Positions 7,810-52,608 of a stretch of 64,000 bases of DNA are shown one piece after another. The translations under genes and the position numbers were made by a program. Origin of the DNA: Acidimicrobiales bacterium (GTDB taxonomy: Bacteria > Actinomycetota > Acidimicrobiia > Acidimicrobiales > WLNW01); the NCBI GenBank assembly GCA_035525225.1, contig DATLFA010000012.1, forward strand, positions 7,818-71,817. Direction: 5' to 3'. Positions within the stretch are counted from its first letter, which is position 1. Each line of letters starts with the position of its first letter. Below the pieces are notes generated by a model. That model worked only from the letters and a program-made list of their open reading frames with translations. It searched no databases and was not told the origin of the DNA.

Positions 7810-7830
7810 TTAGTTGTACCAAGCAAGTAA
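7810..7830. promoter_or_regulatory. candidate MarR operator (imperfect inverted repeat)
   Basis: TTAGTTG-N7-CAAGTAA (one mismatch) sits in the 111-nt divergent intergenic region between the MFS start at 7740 and the MarR start at 7852. Confidence 0.3.
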
Positions 7831-7851: not shown

Positions 7852-8331
7852 GTGCCGGTCGAAGAAGCTTCCGCCCCCGCCCCCGAGCCCGTGGGCCAGA
7901 TCGAGCAGGCGCTCGGTGCGCTGCTGCGATTGACCCGCGCGCCGCGCTTCGCCGAGACGGTGCGCCAACGCGCCGGCGCCGAGGTCGACCGCGCCGGGTA
8001 CGCGGTGTTGGTGCGAGTCGCGGAGTTGGGTCCGGTTCGCCTGTCGGAGTTGGCGCAGTATCTCGGCCTCGACGTGTCGACGGTGAGCCGTCAGGTACAA
8101 CAACTCGAACAGCGTGGTCTCGTCGATCGCAGTCCCGATCCCCTCGACGGCCGGGCGGCCTTGCTCGAGCTGTCGGTTCCCGGTCGCGAAATCATGCAGA
8201 AGATGCGCGACGGGTGGTGCGAGACCGTTGCCGATGTCGTCAAGACGTGGAAGCCCGGCGACATCGAGCGCTTCGGCATTCTCATGGACCGATTCGTCTC
8301 CGACGTCGTCAAGTACCTCGACACGAATTGA
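7852..8331 (+). CDS. MarR family transcriptional regulator
   Basis: Track ORF of 159 aa with a GTG start. The winged-HTH segment LSELAQYLGLDVSTVSRQVQQLEQRGLVDR...DGRAALLELS is present. It is divergent from the MFS pair. Confidence 0.88.
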   Translation: MPVEEASAPAPEPVGQIEQALGALLRLTRAPRFAETVRQRAGAEVDRAGYAVLVRVAELGPVRLSELAQYLGLDVSTVSRQVQQLEQRGLVDRSPDPLDGRAALLELSVPGREIMQKMRDGWCETVADVVKTWKPGDIERFGILMDRFVSDVVKYLDTN

Positions 8332-12642: not shown

Positions 12643-12653
<11 letters not shown>

Positions 12654-13620
12654 CGGGGACCAGCAGTTCGTCATCGATCACGACGGTGACGACCGCGCCG
12701 CCGTCGATCGCGTCCGGATGATCGACGACGAGCTCACCGAGCGACGTCGACACCCGCGTGACGTACCGACCACCGCGAAACCGCTGTGCCAGCACCGTGC
12801 CCGCGAACCCGACACCAGCCGTGTCGTCGATGCGAATGGCGTCCGACCGGATGAGCGTGCGACCCCGCGCCGGCAGATCGACGATGTTGTCGTGGCCGAG
12901 GAACCGTGCGACGAACTCTGTCTGCGGGTCGCGCCAGATGGCGAGCGGCGTGTCGACGCGCTCGATCTGCCCTCGTTGCATCACCACGACGCGGTCGGCG
13001 ATCGCAAACGCCTCGTCTTGATCGTGGGTCACGTGGATGGCCGTCACACCGACCCCACGCAAGAGCTCGCCGATCTCGGTCGTCAACCGTTCGCGCAATC
13101 CTCGGTCGAGGGACCCGAAAGGTTCGTCGAGCATCAGCAATTGCGGCGCGGGTGCGAGCGACCGCGCCAGCGCGACGCGTTGTGCTTCGCCCCCCGAGAG
13201 CGTGCCGATCGCCCGGTCGCCCATGGCGGCCAGACCGACGAGGTCGAGCATCTCGGCGACGCGCCGGCGGCGCTGTGCGGCCGGCTGGTGCTGCATGCGC
13301 AACCCGAATTCGATGTTCTCGCCGACACTTCGGTGGGGAAAGAGCGCGTGATCCTGGAACATGAGACCGAATCCGCGTGCGTGCGGCGCGGTGTCGCTCA
13401 CGTCGCGTCCGTTCCACCGGACGGCGCCCGAGTCGGGCGTCAGCAAGCCGGCGATGGCTCGCAGCAGCGTGCTCTTGCCGCAGCCGCTCGGTCCCAGCAC
13501 GGAGACGATCTCGCGCCCGGCGACCGACAGGTCGACACCGTCGAGCGCGATGGCGCCGTCATAGCTGACGGACAGACCCTCGACCTGCAGCCCCTCGCTT
13601 GCGTTTCCTTGCGCGGTCAC
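12643..13620 (-). CDS. ABC transporter ATP-binding protein (ThiQ/FbpC-like, with C-terminal TOBE-like extension)
   Basis: GTG at 13620 (GTGA overlap with the permease stop) within track ORF 12643..13890. Walker A GPSGCGKST, signature LSGGEAQR and Walker B LLMLDEPF are present. Confidence 0.85.
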
Positions 13621-15305
13621 AGGCTCACCGAACTGCGGGGCCGCAGTCGTTCGACGACGAGCGTTGCCAGTATCACCAACGCGGCCAGGATGACCGCGAG
13701 TGCCATGGCCATGCCCCGCAGCGCGGCCCCCGGTTGGCTCAACAAGCGGAACATGGCGATCGGGATCGTGGGCGCGTCGGGGCGGGCGAGGAACGATGTC
13801 GCGCCGAACTCTCCCAGCGAGATCGCGAATGCGAACGCGGCTGCGGCAGACGCCGCGCGCGCGGCGACCGGCCAGTCGACGTTGCGCCATACGCGCGGCG
13901 GCGACGCGCCCAGCACCGTGGCCGAATCACGTAGCCGATCGTCGATGGCGCGCAGCGCGGGCACGACGATGCGCACCACGAACGGGATGGCAACGAGCGC
14001 TTGCGCCAAAGGGATCAAGATCCATGACGTGCGCAGGTCGAGCGGCGGATCGTCGAGCGCAATGAGAAATCCGAACCCCAGCGTCACCGCAGACGTGCCG
14101 AGGGGCAACATCAAGCCGATGTCGAGCACACGGGCGATCGCGCGCCGCCCGTAGACGATCGCACCGGCGGCCAACCCACCCACCGCAAGCCCGATGATCG
14201 TGGCCACCGCGGCCGTGACGAGTGAGTTGCGCACTGCTTCGATCGGCGGCACAAGAAGGGACGACGACGCGCGTTCGCGCGAGCCGAGCGCGCGGTAGTT
14301 GTCGAACCCGTGACCGCCGCGGACGACCAGCGATCGCTCGACGAGCGATGCCAGTGGCATCGCGACGAGTACCACGGTCGGCGCCAACGACGCGGCGAGG
14401 GCGACGCGTTCACGGGTGGTCGCGGCGCGACGCGGTGGCGTGACCCGGCTGCGGCCGGCCAGTCGGCCGACCCGCCGTTCGAGCAGCGTCGCCGCGGCGA
14501 CCATCGCGACCACGGCCGCGAGTTGGAAGGCCGAGAGCAGCGCGGCGGTGTGGAAGTCGGTGCGCTGCACGGCGTAGCGCCAGATCTCCGACTCGATGGT
14601 GGCCTGGCGCGGCCCGCCGAGCAACAAGATGACGCCGAACGACGTGAAGCAAAACAGAAAGACGATGGCGCTCGCGGCAGTGATGGCGGGCCGCAGCCGT
14701 GGGAGATCGATCTCGACGAACACTCGCCAGCGGGAGGCGCCGAGCATCTGTGCGCTTTCGTCCACGCGTTGATCGAGCAGCGCCCAGTAGCCGCCGACGA
14801 CGCGCACGATCACCGCGACGTTGAAGATCACGTGGGCGAGAAGGATCGCCCACGTCGTGTGGTAGAGCCGCACCGGCCCGTCGTCGAGGCCGAAACGGTC
14901 GATCAGTGCGTTGATGGCGCTACCGATGACAACCGTCGGTAGCGCAAACGGCACCACGACCAACGCCCGCACGAGGGCCTTGCCGGCGAAGCGATAGCGA
15001 GCGAGCACCCGTGCCGCCGGAAGGCCCACCGCGAGGGTCAGCACGGTCGAGACGACGGCCTGCCACACGGTGAACCACACCACGGATCGCAACTGCCCAT
15101 CGGTGATCAGATCGACGACGTTGTGGCGACCCCGGCGCCCGAGTCCGCGGTCCAGGATCGTGATGATCGGATACGCGAAGAACACCGCCAAGAAGCCCAG
15201 TGGCAGCGCCACCATGGCGAAGCGCGCCAGCCGCGACCTAGGCCCGAGCGCCGCGGCGCCACGCGGCGCTATCGCAGCGCGATCTTGGCCCAACGCTCGG
15301 TCCAA
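13617..15305 (-). CDS. ABC transporter permease, fused double-domain (ThiP-like)
   Basis: Track ORF of 562 aa, about 12 TM, with two permease repeats. The start is uncertain: TTG 15305 or 15293 overlap the upstream gene, and ATG 15215 is the alternative. Confidence 0.8.
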   Translation of the reverse strand: MDRALGQDRAAIAPRGAAALGPRSRLARFAMVALPLGFLAVFFAYPIITILDRGLGRRGRHNVVDLITDGQLRSVVWFTVWQAVVSTVLTLAVGLPAARVLARYRFAGKALVRALVVVPFALPTVVIGSAINALIDRFGLDDGPVRLYHTTWAILLAHVIFNVAVIVRVVGGYWALLDQRVDESAQMLGASRWRVFVEIDLPRLRPAITAASAIVFLFCFTSFGVILLLGGPRQATIESEIWRYAVQRTDFHTAALLSAFQLAAVVAMVAAATLLERRVGRLAGRSRVTPPRRAATTRERVALAASLAPTVVLVAMPLASLVERSLVVRGGHGFDNYRALGSRERASSSLLVPPIEAVRNSLVTAAVATIIGLAVGGLAAGAIVYGRRAIARVLDIGLMLPLGTSAVTLGFGFLIALDDPPLDLRTSWILIPLAQALVAIPFVVRIVVPALRAIDDRLRDSATVLGASPPRVWRNVDWPVAARAASAAAAFAFAISLGEFGATSFLARPDAPTIPIAMFRLLSQPGAALRGMAMALAVILAALVILATLVVERLRPRSSVSL

Positions 15306-16387
15306 TCGATTCGATTCGATTCGATGGTCGCCGGATCGAGCGTGAGTGGCTTGTCGACCAGCTTGGCGTGCTTCGAGAACTCCGCGGGCAATGTGGCCGA
15401 CTTGCTCGCCGGAAAGACGAACATGTTCAGTGGGATGTCGTTTTGCACCGTGTCCGACAACAAGAAGTCCACGAGCGCCGCGGCAGCCTCGGGATGCTCG
15501 CTACCGCGCAAGACGCCCGCGAACTCGATCTGCCGGAAACAGGTCTCGTTCACCACGCCCGTCGGGGGCTCGGTCAACTTGCCCTCGGAGAACACGACTT
15601 CGGCCGCAGGGCTCGATGCATACGACGTGACGATCGACTTGTCGCCGCCGCCGGACTTGAACTGCTCGCCGTAGGCCTCGGTCCAACCTGGCGCGATTGC
15701 GACGTTGTTGTCACGAAGCTTGCGCCAGTAGCCCTCCCACCCATCGTCGCCATACTTGGCGATGGTCGCGAGCAGGAACGCGAACCCGGGCGACGACGTG
15801 TCGGGGTGTTCGGTGACGAACTGCCCCTTGAACTCGGGCTTGGTCAGGTCGTCGAACGACGCCGGCGCCGCTCCCGAACCGAACGACTCCTTCCAGTAGT
15901 TCACGCACACGTCACCGACGTCCATCGGCGTCACCCGGTGGTACGTATCGAGTTGAAGGTCTTCGGCCACGTCGGCCAGCGCCGGCGACTCGTAGGGCAC
16001 GAAGACGTTCGCTTCGAGCGCTTTGCACAAGAATGTGTTGTCGACGCCGAACATCACGTCCGCCGTGGGCTTACCCGAAGTGATCACCGCTTGGCTGACC
16101 ATTGCTCCGGCGTCGTTGCTCCTGAGCAGCTCGACCTCGACGCCGGTTTGCGCCGTGAACTCCTCGAGCGTGCCGTCCGACAACGCGAAGGAATCATGGG
16201 TGACGAGTGTGATCTTCGTGCCCCTGATGTTCGCGCTCTTCACCGAATCAGAGGAGATTGCAGGGGTGGCGGGCTCGTCGAAGCATTTCGCGCCCGCAGA
16301 CGAGGATGAGTCGTCACCGCAGGCGGTCGCCGCGAGCGCGACGATGCCGACCACGAGAGAGGCGACGAGGGGTCGGCGCACGATCAT
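15269..16387 (-). CDS. ABC transporter substrate-binding protein, thiamine (ThiB/TbpA-like); probable lipoprotein
   Basis: ATG at 16387 within track ORF 15269..16423 gives MIVRRPLVASLVVGIVALAATACGDD... (signal peptide plus Cys). The TPP riboswitch lies immediately upstream. The body resembles TbpA/Fe3+-type periplasmic binding proteins. Confidence 0.85.
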   Translation of the reverse strand: MIVRRPLVASLVVGIVALAATACGDDSSSSAGAKCFDEPATPAISSDSVKSANIRGTKITLVTHDSFALSDGTLEEFTAQTGVEVELLRSNDAGAMVSQAVITSGKPTADVMFGVDNTFLCKALEANVFVPYESPALADVAEDLQLDTYHRVTPMDVGDVCVNYWKESFGSGAAPASFDDLTKPEFKGQFVTEHPDTSSPGFAFLLATIAKYGDDGWEGYWRKLRDNNVAIAPGWTEAYGEQFKSGGGDKSIVTSYASSPAAEVVFSEGKLTEPPTGVVNETCFRQIEFAGVLRGSEHPEAAAALVDFLLSDTVQNDIPLNMFVFPASKSATLPAEFSKHAKLVDKPLTLDPATIESNRIDWTERWAKIALR

Positions 16388-16390
16388 GAT

Positions 16391-16473
16391 TTCCTCCGCT
16401 GGCATTACCCAGATCAGGTTCACGGGTCGACGGCAGCGAGCCGTCCTCTCAGCCCGGTGCCCCGAGCTCCCCG
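16391..16473 (-). promoter_or_regulatory. TPP (thiamine pyrophosphate) riboswitch, THI-box
   Basis: The minus strand reads CGGGGAGCUCGGGGCACCGGGCUGAGAGGACGGCUCGCUGCCGUCGACCCGUGAACCUGAUCUGGGUAAUGCCAGCGGAGGAAAUCAUG. The conserved GGGGC, CUGAGA, ACCC and ACCUGAUCUGGGUAAUGCCAGCG blocks are all present. The GGAGGAA Shine-Dalgarno abuts the aptamer. Confidence 0.92.
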
Positions 16474-16568
16474 ATTCGATTGATTGCGTGGTCGACGCTA
16501 ACGCCGACCCTCAGCCATTTGCAACCGGCAATGGCGGCGGGCATGAGCGAACCGCGCCGCGCCGGTGA

Positions 16569-17795: not shown

Positions 17796-20213
17796 TCATT
17801 CCGTTGGTACCCACACCACCGCGATCTCGTCGACGGTGATGTCGGTCTTTTCTAGCCGAATGCTCAGGGACTCGATCTGCGCTGCTTTGCGGTCCCACTC
17901 GTCTTGGATGGCCGCGAGCTTGTCGGTGAGGTCCTGCTCGAGATCGACCAGCTGGTCGTGTCGTCCTTCGAGTCGGTTCTTGGCGGTCTCGAGGCGTTCG
18001 CCGGCCTGGCCGCGCATGCGCTCTTTGCCGATCGTCCGAGTGACGGTGCCGAGCACGCTCTTCGTGTTCTTGCGCCCACCGAGGAAGGACCCGAGCAAAC
18101 CGCCGGCGCCGGAGACGACCGTGTCGAGGCCGCGCCGCTTCTTGTCGGACTGGACCTCGCGTACTTTGTCTTCTGCTTTGTCGATGGCGTCCTTGATGCG
18201 GTCGATCTTGTCGGTCATCGCTGTGCGCAACTTGTCGGCGTCCTTGTCGGCAAGATCCTCGGCAACCTGGCTGCAGCGCGTCGAGAACTCGTCTTTCGAT
18301 TCGCCGACACGGGAGTAGAGCTTGAGTGCGGCGTTCTTCAGCAGCTCGACCGTCATCGTGCGATAGAGGTGATCCTGCAGTTCGGATTTGGCCTTTGTGA
18401 AGTACGTCTTCGATTTGAGCTCCGCGTCGGGCAGTACGTAGACCGGGGCCTCGGGCGGTGTCCGGCGGAAGTCGCGATCGTCGTAGTCGACGTTGCGCGC
18501 ATCGGTGACATCGAGCGCTCCGTCGAGAGGGAAGAAGACGGCTTCCCACTCTTGTTGCTCGCGCACGTCGGCCTTCTCGTCGTCGAACAACAGCTTGACG
18601 CGGGCAACCACCGCGGCCTCGAGTCGCTTGCCGCTCGAGCGGGCGCCGATCTCGGATGCCCATGCTGCTGCAGGATCGAGGTAGTACACCTGTACACCGT
18701 CGGCGATCGTCGGCGCCAGTGAGCTCTCGTCGTCGCCCAGGGTGGGGGTTCGAGCCGGCGGCTCTCTGCCGCGAGCGGGGGTGTCGTTGTCGTCGGCCGG
18801 GCGCGTCGCGCTCTGCTGGCGCAATGGAGAGTGCGCCATCAACGCGGCGATCTGATCGCGCGACAGTGGGCCCGGCAGGTACGACATCGCCCACCGGCTG
18901 GTGAAAATGACGGGCTTGTTGGCCTTGGCCGAGTGCAACACGAACTCTCGCTTGGCCAGGCCCGAGATGGTGCGGTCGATCGTCGCCATGTCGGTGGCGC
19001 CCGCCGCGTCTTCGAGGCCTTGCATCAGGCGGGCCTTGTCACGTTCGGTTTGCAGGCGTCCGATCATCCATGTGCCGGCGTTGGCGATCGCCTTGTAGTC
19101 GATGTCGACGGGGTTTTGGGTGGCGAGCACCATGCCGACGCCGAATGCACGCGCCTGCTTGAAGATGGTGAGGATCGGCTTCTTGGCCGGCGGCGCCGCA
19201 GTCGGTGGGACGAAGCCGAACACCTCGTCCATGTAGACGATGACGCGGAGGTCGGGTGTGCCCGACTGCTGACGCATCCACGTGACGAGCTTCGACAGCA
19301 CGAGCGTCACGACGAACTGACGCTCTTGGTCGGACAGGTGGGCGATCTGGATGATGGCCGCGTTGGGCTTGCCGTCGGTGTAGAGCAGCGAGTCGATGTC
19401 GAGGGGCACGCCGCGAGCCCAGCTCGAGAACGCGGGCGACGCGATGAGGCCGTTGAGTCGCATCGCGAGGCCGAGGCGATCCTTCTCGGGAAAGAACGTG
19501 TCGAGGTCGATGACGCCCAGCTTGCGCAGCGGAGGTTGCTGGACTTGCGCGACCAACGACGCGAGATCGAGGTCGGCATTGTTGCGCCACGCATTGGCGA
19601 CGAGGTTGGACAACAAGATGTGCTCGCGGCCCGACAGCGGATCGCTCTCGATGTCGACCAGATTCAGCAAGCTCGACACGAGACCGTCGATCTCGTCCTG
19701 CAGCACCTCGTCATCGACATCGGCACCGGGCCGGCGCATGTCGCCCACGATGTTGAGCGCGATCCCCGTGTTCGATCCAGGTGTGTAGATCGTGAAGTTC
19801 GCGGCGCCGTGCAGGGCACGGATGCGATCGGCGGTCAGTCCCCACGTGGCTTGGCCGTCGGCCCACTGCGTTGCCACGACCGCGGCATGCTCATCGAGGG
19901 TGCGTCCCGCTTTCTTGGCATCGGACTCGAGGACGTACGGTCGGAAGCTCTCGGGCTGCTGGTCGGGGAATGCCAGCAGCAGGTTGCCCATGTCACCTTT
20001 GGGGTCGATGATCAACGCGGGGATGCCCTGCAGAAGGCACTCCTCGAGCAACACGATGCCGAGGCCGGTCTTGCCCGAGCCGGTCATGCCGACGATGACG
20101 CCGTGCGTGGTCAGGTTCGCGGCGTCGTACATCACGAAGTCGTTGGCCCGCTTGTGGTCCGCGGCGTTGATCTTGTCGCCGAGAAACAGGCTCCCCTTGG
20201 GGATGTCCACCAT
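17796..20213 (-). CDS. HerA/FtsK-like (DUF87/DUF853-type) P-loop ATPase with long C-terminal coiled-coil region
   Basis: ATG at 20213 (GAGGAG upstream) within track ORF 17796..20252, giving 805 aa. Walker A GMTGSGKTG, IIDPKGD, Walker B VIVYMDEVF and ATQNPVDIDYKAIANAGTWMIGRLQTERD are present. The C-terminal ~300 aa are K/E/D-rich heptad-like sequence. Confidence 0.8.
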   Translation of the reverse strand: MVDIPKGSLFLGDKINAADHKRANDFVMYDAANLTTHGVIVGMTGSGKTGLGIVLLEECLLQGIPALIIDPKGDMGNLLLAFPDQQPESFRPYVLESDAKKAGRTLDEHAAVVATQWADGQATWGLTADRIRALHGAANFTIYTPGSNTGIALNIVGDMRRPGADVDDEVLQDEIDGLVSSLLNLVDIESDPLSGREHILLSNLVANAWRNNADLDLASLVAQVQQPPLRKLGVIDLDTFFPEKDRLGLAMRLNGLIASPAFSSWARGVPLDIDSLLYTDGKPNAAIIQIAHLSDQERQFVVTLVLSKLVTWMRQQSGTPDLRVIVYMDEVFGFVPPTAAPPAKKPILTIFKQARAFGVGMVLATQNPVDIDYKAIANAGTWMIGRLQTERDKARLMQGLEDAAGATDMATIDRTISGLAKREFVLHSAKANKPVIFTSRWAMSYLPGPLSRDQIAALMAHSPLRQQSATRPADDNDTPARGREPPARTPTLGDDESSLAPTIADGVQVYYLDPAAAWASEIGARSSGKRLEAAVVARVKLLFDDEKADVREQQEWEAVFFPLDGALDVTDARNVDYDDRDFRRTPPEAPVYVLPDAELKSKTYFTKAKSELQDHLYRTMTVELLKNAALKLYSRVGESKDEFSTRCSQVAEDLADKDADKLRTAMTDKIDRIKDAIDKAEDKVREVQSDKKRRGLDTVVSGAGGLLGSFLGGRKNTKSVLGTVTRTIGKERMRGQAGERLETAKNRLEGRHDQLVDLEQDLTDKLAAIQDEWDRKAAQIESLSIRLEKTDITVDEIAVVWVPTE

Positions 20214-20264
20214 GAACTCCTCTCGTGGACGAGAGCCTACGCCGCCGCGCACAGTGGGGACTTA

Positions 20265-20293
20265 GGTCCTGAGCGGCCTTGGCCGGAGCGGAG
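20265..20293. repeat. REP-like GC-rich intergenic element (degenerate copy)
   Basis: GGTCCTGAGCGGCCTTGGCCGGAGCGGAG; compare the consensus GGGCCCGAGCGGCCC..(T)CAGAGCGGGA seen at 7 other intergenic sites. Confidence 0.45.
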
Positions 20294-20348
20294 TTAGGCT
20301 TCGCGTACGTCCACACCCGCCCCTCCCAGGCAAAACAAGGAGCACTCG

Positions 20349-20657
20349 ATGGCCCTCAAGGACAATCTCGGAAAGATTGCCAGCAAGGCGAAGGTCGTCG
20401 CCGAGAAGTCGGGCGACAAGATCGCCAGCGGCGTCGACAAGGCCACTGACAAGATCGACAAGAAGACCGGCGGCAAGTACCACGACAAGCTCGAAAAGGT
20501 CGACAAGCTCGCCTCCAAGCTCGACAAGGACAAAGACGCCGGCGCGGCCGACGCCGATGCCGCGACGCCCGCCGCCGACGCGGCTCCTACCGCCGAAGTG
20601 GTGCCACCCGAAGCCGAAGGCGACGCCACCCCACCGACGGGGACGATGCCGAGTTGA
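20349..20657 (+). CDS. small hydrophilic protein, MT0933/Rv0909-like ('antitoxin'-named family)
   Basis: Track ORF of 102 aa, MALKDNLGKIASKAKVVAEKSGDKIASGVDKATDKIDKKTGGKYHDKLEKVDK..., ending in an A/P/D-rich tail. AAGGAG lies upstream. Confidence 0.75.
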   Translation: MALKDNLGKIASKAKVVAEKSGDKIASGVDKATDKIDKKTGGKYHDKLEKVDKLASKLDKDKDAGAADADAATPAADAAPTAEVVPPEAEGDATPPTGTMPS

Positions 20658-50516: not shown

Positions 50517-50554
50517 TTTCACGCCCCTGATTTCACGCCCCTGATTTCACGCCC
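50513..50554. repeat. 14-nt tandem repeat x3 (CTGATTTCACGCCC)
   Basis: Units at 50513..50526, 50527..50540 and 50541..50554 are identical. Unit 1 carries the TGA of the plus-strand gene. Unit 3 carries the TGA of the convergent minus-strand gene. Confidence 0.9.
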
Positions 50555-50969
50555 CTGGCTGCCACCCGGGCTCGGCCATCACGAATCCGCTGAACTCGAA
50601 GCTCGGTGACACGGTGCAGCCCACGAGCGTGAACTCGCCCTGGGTTCGCGCCGACTGCCAGACATCGGCGTCGATGACGATCTGCGGACGCGCGCCGGTC
50701 GTGAGGTCGGGCCCGAGCACGGCCGTCTCGACGCGCACGCCGTCGCGCGACACCGCGAGCTCGAGCGGCGCGCCCGCGTAATAGTGCCAGATCTCCGTCG
50801 CGTCGACGCGGTGCCAGTGCGATCCCCGGTCTGGTTGCAGCAGGTAGTAGATGGCGGTGCCGGATGCCCGCTCGCCGGTGACCGTGGGTGAACGCCAGGT
50901 CTCGCGATAGAAGCCGCCCTCGGGATGCGGCTGCAGGCCGAGCAGCCGGATGCACTCGTCGGCCGTCAC
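50547..50969 (-). CDS. cupin domain protein (DUF985 family)
   Basis: Track ORF of 140 aa with a GTG start and a GTGA overlap with the upstream stop: LGLQPHPEGGFYRETWRS...HWHRVDATEIWHYYAG... Confidence 0.85.
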   Translation of the reverse strand: MTADECIRLLGLQPHPEGGFYRETWRSPTVTGERASGTAIYYLLQPDRGSHWHRVDATEIWHYYAGAPLELAVSRDGVRVETAVLGPDLTTGARPQIVIDADVWQSARTQGEFTLVGCTVSPSFEFSGFVMAEPGWQPGA

Positions 50970-51511
50970 GCGTCGGTGCCGAAGAGCGCCGCGATCATTT
51001 CGTCGATGACCGGTGCGATGCGCGCACGTATGGACTCCTCATCCTCGGTGAGATAGTCGTGCGGGATGACGACGAGCGGAAGCTCGACGCCTTGGCTGCG
51101 CGCAACCGCCTTGGCCGCATCGATGAATGGCTCGGTCACCACGGTGACCGACGGGATGCCCATGCGTTCCACATTTGCTGAGTCGAGCACACTGCCCGAC
51201 GTACAGCTCCCTCATTTGGCGAGGCCGCTGACGACGCCGCGGCAATCGCGGAACTTCAACAGCATCGCCTCATCCGCGGGGCGCGAGAGCACCGGCTTGC
51301 AGTCTCGGAAGACCTCGAGGTCAGGGATGCGTTTGCGCATCTCGTCTTCGATGACCAACGAATACGCGTAGAAGTCGGGGCCCGCTTGTCGGTTGATCTC
51401 GTTGATGAGAAAACCGATGCGAGGGTTGCGCGGGATCGTGCCCGGTCGGCGCGCCCGCTCGACGCCAGCCCCGTGGACGACGCCCCGCGGGTCGACGAGT
51501 TGGTAGGTCAC
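50966..51511 (-). CDS. UGSC family selenoprotein (in-frame UGA = Sec at 51214..51212)
   Basis: Track ORFs 51212..51712 and 50966..51190 share one frame. Read-through gives ...RDCRGVVSGLAK-U-GSCTSGSVLDSANVERMGIPSVTVV... The start is GTG at 51511 (GTGA overlap with the upstream stop), giving 181 codons. A SECIS-like hairpin lies 11 nt after the UGA. Confidence 0.7.
51182..51200 (-). promoter_or_regulatory. candidate bacterial SECIS stem-loop
   Basis: The mRNA reads GUCGGGC-AGUGU-GCUCGAC, a 7-bp stem with one G-U pair and a 5-nt loop containing GU. It begins 11 nt after the UGA. Confidence 0.45.
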
Positions 51512-52608
51512 TTCGGATCCCTGATCTGGAATGCTCCGGCGATCTCGACTGGTCGGGTCTCGGCGAATCCGCCGAGGTGACCCCATCCGGGGCACACTGC
51601 CCACCACGGGATGCTGTCGGCGCCGCACACGACCACGTGGATGTCCTCGGGGCGCTCGACGCACGGCACCAACGTGTCGTCGCGCGTCTGATCGACCCAG
51701 TCGGGCCACCACGTGTAGTGGTGCTGGGGTTCGTTGTTCGGTCGCATCGGGCCGGCGGGCCGCAAGTCATCGATGCGCCGTCGAGCGATCTCGAACAAGC
51801 CTTGTTGGACATCCGCGCGCGACAGCCCGTTGGCCGCAAGCCCGCGCGCCTCGCTCGGGCTCACGCAGACCACGACGTCGCCCATCGTGTGCGTGTTGTT
51901 GTTACCTTTGGTCCGCATCACGTCGGCACACCATTCGAGTCGGTCGTGCGGTGCGTCGTTGGCGCCCCACATCGCGACGCTGTGTGGCGCTTCGGCCGCG
52001 ACGACGGTGACCGCGCTGGGCGCGTCAACCCCCCGAGCCCGGTGCAACGGCTCCCACGGGGAGTTGGGCGACTCGGCGATACAGAAGGAGTAGCGACCGG
52101 GCTGACCGAACACTTCCTTGACCGGCTCGCCGGGGAGAGAGCCGCCGACGTTCCACAACACGAGCCGGATCGCTCGGCCGATCGCCGCGTTGGCCCGCGA
52201 ACCGCCGCCGCTGAACACCGACTCGGCGTGCGCCATACCGAGCTGTCTGACCGCATCGCCCGAGACGATCACGAGTGGCCATGAGCCGTGCGTGGTCACC
52301 TGCACGCCGCGCAGGTTGAACCGGGGTGTCAGCATCGCCTCGAGTGCGCCGATGATCACGGGCATGTACTCGGGCCGGGCGCCGGCCATGGCCGCGTTGG
52401 CCGCGATCACCTCGATCGTCGCGGTGCCGTCGCGTGGCGGGATGCGCCCCCCGACCTCGTTGGGCGCGCGCCCCGTGCCCGCGACGAGCGCGTCGACGGT
52501 GGCCCGCAATGGAGGATGCACCGGAAGCCCGTCGGTCAGGCCGAGCGCGTAGGAGAGCTCGGGCCAATCGGCCAGGTCGTCCAAATTCGGCAGAATGATG
52601 TCGGTCAT
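51508..52608 (-). CDS. conserved-looking hypothetical protein (366 aa), function unknown
   Basis: ATG at 52608 within track ORF 51508..52743 gives MTDIILPNLDDLADWPELSYALGLTDGLPVHPP...GGGSRANAAIGRAIRLVLWNVGG... Codon usage is GC3-rich. Its stop overlaps the selenoprotein start. Confidence 0.7.
   Translation of the reverse strand: MTDIILPNLDDLADWPELSYALGLTDGLPVHPPLRATVDALVAGTGRAPNEVGGRIPPRDGTATIEVIAANAAMAGARPEYMPVIIGALEAMLTPRFNLRGVQVTTHGSWPLVIVSGDAVRQLGMAHAESVFSGGGSRANAAIGRAIRLVLWNVGGSLPGEPVKEVFGQPGRYSFCIAESPNSPWEPLHRARGVDAPSAVTVVAAEAPHSVAMWGANDAPHDRLEWCADVMRTKGNNNTHTMGDVVVCVSPSEARGLAANGLSRADVQQGLFEIARRRIDDLRPAGPMRPNNEPQHHYTWWPDWVDQTRDDTLVPCVERPEDIHVVVCGADSIPWWAVCPGWGHLGGFAETRPVEIAGAFQIRDPK

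Follow-up and report, generated by a model that had tools for sequence, protein, structure and literature searches.

A predicted UGSC-family selenoprotein gene and its adjoining partner gene in an Acidimicrobiales-type actinobacterium

The locus and its interrupted reading frame

We analysed a stretch of 64,000 nt from an Acidimicrobiales bacterium (positions 7,818 to 71,817 of contig DATLFA010000012.1, assembly GCA_035525225.1; hereafter, the window). Coordinates 50966..51511 on the minus strand are best explained, as a whole, as one gene coding for a 181-residue selenoprotein of the UGSC family in an Acidimicrobiales-type actinobacterium, a reading to which we assign a probability of about 0.85. 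The proposed coding sequence starts with GTG (51511..51509), ends with TGA (50968..50966) and is translated into 181 residues and a stop, with a single internal stop (...FRDCRGVVSGLAK*GSCTSGSVLDSANVERMGIPSV...). This internal TGA (51212..51214), codon 100 of the gene, would be read as selenocysteine (Sec, U) and would be the first residue of the motif U-G-S-C; the homologous position has TGA or cysteine (Cys) codons in the relatives described below. The last residue of the motif, Cys103 (TGT, 51203..51205), is invariant in all UGSC alignments and would be the resolving Cys of a redox motif of the U-x-x-C type. A hairpin of the type found in Sec insertion sequences (SECIS), GUCGGGCA-GUG-UGCUCGAC (51182..51200), begins 11 nt past the UGA and contains a conserved core, CGGGCA-GUN-UGCUCG (51184..51198).

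The gene is tightly packed between two others on the same strand. Its start overlaps, by the tetranucleotide GTGA, the end of a gene for a 366-residue protein (51508..52608), to which it is translationally coupled and which we designate the partner; its stop overlaps in the same manner the start of a Cupin_5 (DUF985) gene (50547..50969; Pfam PF06172, E 8e-48). An earlier note on this DNA, made from the letters alone, had described the open reading frames (ORFs) 51212..51712 and 50966..51190, both on the minus strand, as sharing one frame and being separated by a TGA that GGG AGC TGT follows, and had proposed a cistron of 181 codons fitting between its neighbours. The ORF list and the sequence agree with this description: the frame is the same, it contains one internal TGA, and the two overlaps are seen as aaGTGAcc, at GTG 51511, and gcGTGAcg, at the terminal TGA. 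Likewise, the GC-rich third codon positions described on both sides of the TGA were found (0.84 and 0.79). At the three codon positions, the GC fractions are 0.69/0.43/0.84 ahead of the TGA and 0.67/0.46/0.79 past it, and these near-equal values indicate that the same coding signature runs on in frame.

When the entire window was scanned for coding segments that share a frame and are split by a TGA, this site was the only real candidate, the two other hits being ordinary gene boundaries, and no further selenoprotein genes were found in the 64 kb. The tryptic peptide predicted at Sec100 is U-GSCTSGSVLDSANVER.

Conservation of the UGA codon and of a downstream hairpin

Most database homologues of the window protein are fragments of 99-100 residues ending in ...GLAK, together with a few full-length proteins containing C-G-S-C at that place. 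In the DNA of the ...GLAK fragments the stop is always a TGA, followed in frame by the conserved sequence GSCT[SA]GS[VL]LD (e.g. GSCTSGSVLDS...), which indicates that the ...GLAK ends are artefacts of gene calling. The homologues, hence, do not truly end at the equivalent of position 51212 and, as the earlier note had predicted, gene callers split or missed the gene in essentially every public record that we examined. A scan of reference genomes retrieved 28 loci, with TGA at the U position in two metagenome-assembled genomes (MAGs) of Acidimicrobiales and two of Myxococcota; the remaining 24 have TGC or TGT inside one uninterrupted ORF, so that Cys homologues align across the junction, as the earlier note had expected. 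The loci with Cys codons belong to Binatia, Thermodesulfobacteriota, Alphaproteobacteria, Methanobacteriaceae, Myxococcales and numerous Actinomycetota. The nearest match among the genomes is in an Acidimicrobiales MAG (locus L007, JBDTLT01), whose protein is 92% identical to that of the window.

We also scanned metagenomes using as query the N-terminal half alone, which avoids a bias towards Cys forms or towards the hairpin. The codon was TGA in all 52 loci with a readable junction, with N-terminal identities from 94% down to 37%, and the window clade thus uses TGA at the U position without exception. Among 87 readable loci of the first 89 sequences collected, the codon was TGA in 63, TGC in 19 and TGT in 5; TGA also occupies this position in two fusion genes described below (L096 and L097). 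Altogether, the architecture of the window gene recurs in more than 60 related loci.

These comparisons bear on two other explanations of the locus. The first supposes two separate genes, one for a 99-residue protein ending at the TGA and another for an independent protein of 65-74 residues starting at GTG 51190 or further downstream. This is how public gene calls split the sequence everywhere, and, of the 47 unique Sec forms, 43 have a potential start (GTG or TTG) at codon +8; however, the other four have CTC or CTG, which are not starts. Furthermore, the invariant family signature GSCTSGS is encoded by the stretch of seven codons that separates the TGA from the GTG, the Cys-form homologues are uninterrupted, the Pfam model of the family runs straight across the junction, and the two ORFs are always in frame and separated always by TGA, never by TAA or TAG. 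We consider it highly unlikely that there are two genes. The second explanation is that a Cys codon (TGC or TGT) mutated, in a pseudogene, or was misread as TGA in this contig; one base change would suffice, and the window is probably a metagenome assembly. Nevertheless, the same TGA is found in more than 60 independent contigs, from many samples and in proteins down to 37% identical, the coding signature and the conservation are kept in the frame downstream, and the exact N-terminal fragment recurs in an independent assembly (SRR8556377). The 52 TGA loci out of 52, down to 37% identity, therefore virtually exclude a pseudogene or an assembly error.

Bacterial SECIS elements are hairpins within the coding sequence, from ca. 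11 nt past the UGA and with GU in the loop. The earlier note had placed such a hairpin, with G/U in its apical loop, 11 nt past the UGA at 51200..51182, and RNA folding confirmed it, the minimum-energy fold adding an A-U pair. The hairpin has a stem of 8 bp and a GUG loop (-10.2 kcal/mol, z = -3.4), equalled by 1 of 200 shuffled sequences; the surrounding 71-nt region is of ordinary stability (z = -0.87), and only the short hairpin stands out. In the window clade, the sequence past the UGA is GGN-WSN-UGY-AC followed by GUCGGGCA-GU[G/U/C]-UGCUCGAC, with a 3-nt loop beginning with GU; variants with Ala instead of Ser at +5 lose two basal pairs and conserve the core CGGGCA/UGCUCG. The Sec forms from Myxococcota, with residues TSWSLHD, contain the hairpin GUCGUGGA-GUC-UCCACGAC, equal in position, stem length and GU loop, in which compensatory changes affect two pairs (from G-U to U-A and from C-G to G-C), and the two Sec-form fusion genes contain AUCGGGCG-GUG-UGCUCGAC and CGUGGA-GUG-UCCACG at an equal spacing. 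Every Sec lineage, then, has identical spacing and a GUN loop. When 20 distinct sequences are aligned, 95.6% of the cells in the helix are paired, versus 29-49% when the helix is slid by 1-3 columns, and the observed covariation score was reached by none of 500 shuffles.

Synonymous sites are also constrained in this region. Among 42 unique coding sequences, hardly any codon variation is seen for the residues S, G, S, L and D at +5 to +10 (TCG 38/38, GGC 42/42, AGT 42/42, CTC 42/42 and GAC 41/42), whereas equally conserved residues with four- or six-fold degeneracy elsewhere in the gene show a codon entropy of 1-2 bits. In particular, Ser +7 is encoded by AGT in 47 of 47 unique Sec forms and in none of the 18 Cys forms having Ser there (AGC in 6, TCG in 12), and the U of this AGT is the U of the GU in the loop. 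Synonymous constraint appears to us a stronger argument for a SECIS element than covariation. It could still be argued that the nucleotides past the TGA are conserved through protein and codon-usage constraint alone, with no RNA element involved, because the conserved residues T-S-G/W-S-x-L/H-D dictate part of the stem and because a 6-bp remnant is present in Cys forms from Binatia. This is hardly probable, given that codon entropy is almost nil at the hairpin, that AGT is not among the Ser codons preferred in genes this rich in GC and is replaced in the Cys forms by AGC or TCG, and that compensatory changes maintain an 8-bp stem in a lineage with other residues.

Structure, spacing, covariation and synonymous constraint agree, and they support that the hairpin acts as a SECIS element. 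The equivalent segments of the Cys forms from Actinomycetota and Methanobacteriaceae did not form the hairpin upon folding. The remnant in Cys forms from Binatia and Thermodesulfobacteriota (loci L009-L012, residues TSWSLHD) is GUCGUG...CACGAC, ca. 14 nt past the Cys codon and with a 7-nt loop lacking GU; it may be a fossil SECIS left after replacement of Sec by Cys. No SECIS family matched in Rfam at gathering or permissive thresholds, although bacterial SECIS elements are barely represented there. The SECIS of the Escherichia coli fdhF type, whose minimal form was reportedly defined by Liu and colleagues in 1998, is also an intragenic hairpin from 11 nt past the UGA with an exposed GU in the apical loop; in contrast, the hairpin described here has only 19 nt (8 bp and a 3-nt loop) and no evident bulged U. 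The 11-nt spacing and the GU loop also agree with the consensus of bSECISearch, a model for bacterial elements reportedly published by Zhang and Gladyshev in 2005. For the present genes, a search rule combining CG[G/U]G[C/G]A-GUN-U[G/C]C[U/A]CG, 13 nt past the UGA, with the AGT signature would offer a simple way to locate them.

Taken as a whole, the anatomy of the gene and the comparison with its relatives indicate that the internal UGA very probably encodes Sec. Codon 100 would be read as Sec during translation in a SelB-dependent insertion, with the 19-nt hairpin, 11 nt downstream, exposing GU in its apical loop in the geometry recognised by SelB-GTP-Sec-tRNASec. An alternative is that the UGA is recoded to something other than Sec, either by near-cognate read-through or as Cys by a tRNASec-like tRNACys working with SelB, which Mukai and colleagues reportedly described in 2016 from some Actinobacteria. 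SelB would make use of the hairpin under both readings, and Sec biosynthesis genes were not seen in the window. Conversely, none of the 52 window-clade loci has a Cys codon, which points to selection for Sec itself; the family forms a classic pair of Sec and Cys versions in which Sec dominates, with 255 Sec versus 21 Cys forms in marine surveys (PMC2398784); and related Acidimicrobiia carry selA, selD and selC. For Actinomarinales, a different order within Acidimicrobiia, a preprint reports selA, selD, selC and a divergent selB in each of the 84 complete genomes (bioRxiv 10.64898/2026.04.03.716425). Recoding to another residue is thus very improbable, and we retain Sec as the reading of codon 100.

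Family assignment, fold and relationship to selenoprotein B

The earlier note had also assigned the joined protein to the UGSC family. With U replaced by C, it matched the Pfam model for UGSC (PF24696) with 95.5 bits, versus a gathering threshold of 25, and the match spans the junction, covering residues 5-177 of the 181 and positions 2-171 of the 172 in the model. It also matched NCBIfam NF041046, 'UGSC family (seleno)protein' (80.9 bits, E 8.9e-23). The assignment to the RefSeq name proposed in the earlier note is, then, sustained as a match and fails by score, since the curated cut-off is 125 bits; a Cys-form relative, P0185, clears it with 130.6 bits. At the Pfam level, the sequences place the window clade as a divergent subfamily of UGSC and not, by the NCBI rule, as an NF041046 equivalog, and this rule would probably leave the clade without that name. 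The motif A-x-[C/U]-G-S-C-T is invariant across the family alignments. As in the rest of the family, the window clade has U-G-S-C at the same alignment column, a length of ca. 180 residues, a SECIS-type element directly past the UGA and a position where Sec and Cys interchange; it differs in its sequence, ...GLAK-U-GSCT[SA]GS[VL]LD..., which is only 22-36% identical to the Cys forms, and in that all of its sampled members are Sec forms.

UGSC-containing proteins were described as predicted selenoproteins without known function (Zhang & Gladyshev 2008; PMC2398784), having been listed as such since 2005-2008. They are among the most abundant predicted selenoproteins of aquatic metagenomes and their function is still undescribed (PMC2398784, PMC13188914). 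The UGSC selenoprotein type is, therefore, already known and the window gene is a further divergent member of it.

As a proxy for the window protein we modelled with AlphaFold2 the 36%-identical Cys homologue P0185. The model (predicted local distance difference test score, pLDDT, of 86) is a five-stranded parallel beta/alpha sandwich in which C-G-S-C lies between strand 3 and the next helix. Its top 50 matches in the PDB are flavodoxin-like or Rossmann-like, the best being flavodoxin-like with template modelling (TM) scores of 0.4-0.5, and not thioredoxins; a PDB sequence search with the UGSC profile gave nothing meaningful. UGSC shares with the UxxC/CxxU selenoproteins of thioredoxin fold a U-x-x-C of the redox type placed at a helix N-terminus, but the proxy model has five parallel beta/alpha units and flavodoxin-like matches. 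A 'likely Trx-like fold' has been proposed in the literature for UGSC; this candidate fold was not recovered in the P0185 model, which does not support it.

A scan of 59 UGSC members against NCBIfam produced sub-threshold matches to selenoprotein B models: GrdB (TIGR01917) in 54 of them, with a best E of 3e-6, GrdF in 43, GrdH in 38, the generic selenoprotein B model (TIGR01918) in 31, and PrdB in 7. The match of P0185 covers positions 303-403 of the GrdB model, its Sec-bearing region, and the U position of UGSC would map to ca. 349 of this model, with its Sec presumably at ca. 350. The window protein itself matched the PrdB model with an E of 0.16. Additionally, hhalign aligned C(U)xxC with the UxxC, and with the GIPxV after it, of PrdB/GrdB-like reads in the GOS (Global Ocean Sampling) dataset, although weakly (E 0.0056-0.19).

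UGSC resembles selenoprotein B (GrdB, GrdF, GrdH and PrdB; TIGR01917/01918/04483, PF07355) in having UxxC after a beta-strand, followed by ...E..GIP(S/T)V..., and in probably acting, as discussed below, with a second and separately encoded subunit. The differences are considerable: UGSC does not reach half the size of GrdB, its partner has no relationship to GrdE and PrdA, the pyruvoyl proproteins, there is no GrdA, GrdC or GrdD in its neighbourhood, and its hosts include aerobic actinobacteria and methanogens, not Stickland fermenters. From these comparisons we conclude that UGSC proteins would be distantly related to the Sec domain of selenoprotein B, that of the glycine, sarcosine, betaine and D-proline reductases, and not members of that family.

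The partner protein, its fusions and the genomic context

A homologue of the partner directly adjoins the UGSC gene, with which it shares the strand, in all 83 loci with enough flanking sequence, including the archaeal ones (upstream in 66 and downstream in 17). The partner did not match any Pfam or NCBIfam model. An exhaustive profile search retrieved, with E up to 1e-3, a family of 5,414 representatives at 50% identity, from Bacteria and Methanobacteriaceae. The partner is also encoded in complete genomes of 'Candidatus Poriferisocius' (P0121, P0131 and P0159). Many of these representatives have 530-560 residues, and Pfam confirms that they are UGSC-partner fusions; one of them (P0342) has the two parts in opposite order. 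Shorter representatives start in the middle of the UGSC domain, and their DNA contains a single frame with TGA at the U position and a hairpin after it. Two Sec-form fusions are of particular relevance. Locus L097 (1568..3235) encodes a 555-residue UGSC-partner fusion, with U-G-G-C in place of U-G-S-C. Locus L096 (1894..3858; GCA_016210565.1, JACQUA010000414.1) contains a frame of 654 codons with one in-frame TGA, which joins a Sec-form UGSC, the partner and, at the C-terminal end, the catalytic domain of ferredoxin:thioredoxin reductase (FTR; FeThRed_B, PF02943, E 1.4e-16); gene callers split it into pieces of 97 and 549 residues.

In certain fusions the motif is degenerate, with one or both of the redox residues missing (CGAS in P0340, CGVS in P0331 and SGSR in P0342). 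Two other candidate fusions, P0172 and P0062, were discarded as frame errors. In a Myxococcales MAG (SHYV01000084.1, locus L018) a tRNA-SeC (8128..8226) lies between two paralogous partner genes and ca. 5 kb from a Cys-form UGSC gene. A fusion of UGSC to a domain named 'Unknown_1' was mentioned in the 2008 GOS paper (PMC2398784); this domain may be the partner.

As shown by synteny and by the fusions, UGSC would work with an obligate partner of ca. 360 residues that, in the window, is encoded by the overlapping upstream gene, which suggests that both form a two-part redox enzyme. The AlphaFold2 model of the partner is of high confidence (pLDDT 89.5, predicted TM score 0.90) and had no significant neighbour in the PDB, the best TM score being 0.24 (class I fumarate hydratase, 'Toblerone' hydrolases). 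Its motifs DGLPxxPP, AxNAxxAG, NLxGxxxTT, GxGxRANxxxGRA and VTxxxxE are invariant over Bacteria and Archaea, and D26, N71, T105-T106, R145 and E206 are among its invariant residues. A pyruvoyl-type processing site at Cys/Ser of residue 109 was considered and rejected, the column being C, S, V or A depending on the lineage. In the mechanism that we propose, Sec100 would be the catalytic nucleophile or redox centre and would act on a substrate held by the partner, ending as a Sec100-Cys103 selenenylsulfide; this could be re-reduced by a thiol or by a disulfide reductase system linked to thioredoxin or ferredoxin.

Several results weigh against these interpretations. Neither selA, selB, selD nor tRNA-Sec was found in the 64-kb window, where there is no tRNA of any kind and where SelA, SelB and SelD domains are present in 0 of ca. 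45 likely genes. The NF041046 score of the window protein is under the equivalog cut-off by the amount already indicated. Covariation in the stem is contributed by few lineages and is linked to changes of amino acid, being modest on its own, and within the window clade the stem is invariant, such that its support there comes from synonymous-site constraint and not from covariation. The fold was modelled on P0185, a 36%-identical Cys homologue, and not on the window protein. The GrdB/PrdB scores are far under the family cut-off (16.4 bits at best for P0185, versus 602), and with hhalign the probability for GrdB/PrdB was at most 6.6%, with a best E of 0.0056. As for the partner, its alignment contains no universally conserved Cys, and the idea that it is an analogue of GrdE or PrdA was rejected because it shows no similarity to either.

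The genes around UGSC are catabolic, encoding luciferase-like monooxygenases, Amidohydro_2 proteins, short-chain dehydrogenases/reductases (SDRs), CoA ligases, cupins and SnoaL-like proteins. Catabolic genes are densely clustered over the window as a whole, in an island that contains no fewer than six luciferase-like monooxygenases and four Amidohydro_2 proteins, besides numerous SDRs, CoA ligases and thiolases. The gene order AMP-binding / SnoaL_4 / Cupin_2 / His_Phos_1 / ETF-or-FMO (electron transfer flavoprotein or flavin monooxygenase) / Lactamase_B / Bac_luciferase / Amidohydro_2 / partner / UGSC constitutes a syntenic block that is maintained among Acidimicrobiales at ca. 60% protein identity (loci L002 and L089/L095, and a contig of 268 kb). 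There is no universal neighbour beyond the UGSC-partner pair. The Cupin_5 gene, in the same operon in the window, also follows UGSC in the 268-kb contig; L002 and L005 lack it at that place, and it is not a conserved neighbour. Amidohydro_2 was considered as a third conserved component and discarded, being no more than weak context: it occurs within 3 kb in only 11 of 32 loci, the family is very common in these genomes, and it was absent near UGSC in the loci from Myxococcota, Alphaproteobacteria and Methanobacteriaceae.

Elsewhere in the window, a thiamine pyrophosphate (TPP) riboswitch (RF00059, 59.3 bits; 16374..16483, minus strand) is situated directly upstream of an operon for an ATP-binding cassette (ABC) transporter (solute-binding protein, permease and ATPase; ca. 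12643..16510), which is probably an uptake system for thiamine or a precursor. Additionally, at 17796..20657 an 821-residue HerA/DUF87-like ATPase adjoins a small protein with an MT0933-like antitoxin domain.

We found no description, in the papers mentioning UGSC that were consulted, of the obligate partner, the relationship with selenoprotein B, the non-thioredoxin fold or the FTR fusion; these four points are leads and not established facts. Our results also have a consequence for annotation, because the public records for the GLAK-U-GSCTSGS clade carry just 'hypothetical protein' fragments of 99-100 residues and the cut-off of NF041046 (125 bits) leaves out the whole clade. Tentatively, and with less than even confidence, we propose that UGSC and its partner, at times with a fused FTR domain, may constitute an uncharacterised and very widespread two-component (seleno)enzyme in the catabolic clusters of aerobic soil and marine actinobacteria, a stripped-down cousin of the selenoprotein B reductases of Stickland metabolism in which Sec would reductively cleave a substrate bound to the partner. 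The partner, the natural fusions, the fused FTR domain and the link to selenoprotein B would make of an isolated 'redox-like' ORF a defined system of two subunits, open to expression and assay.

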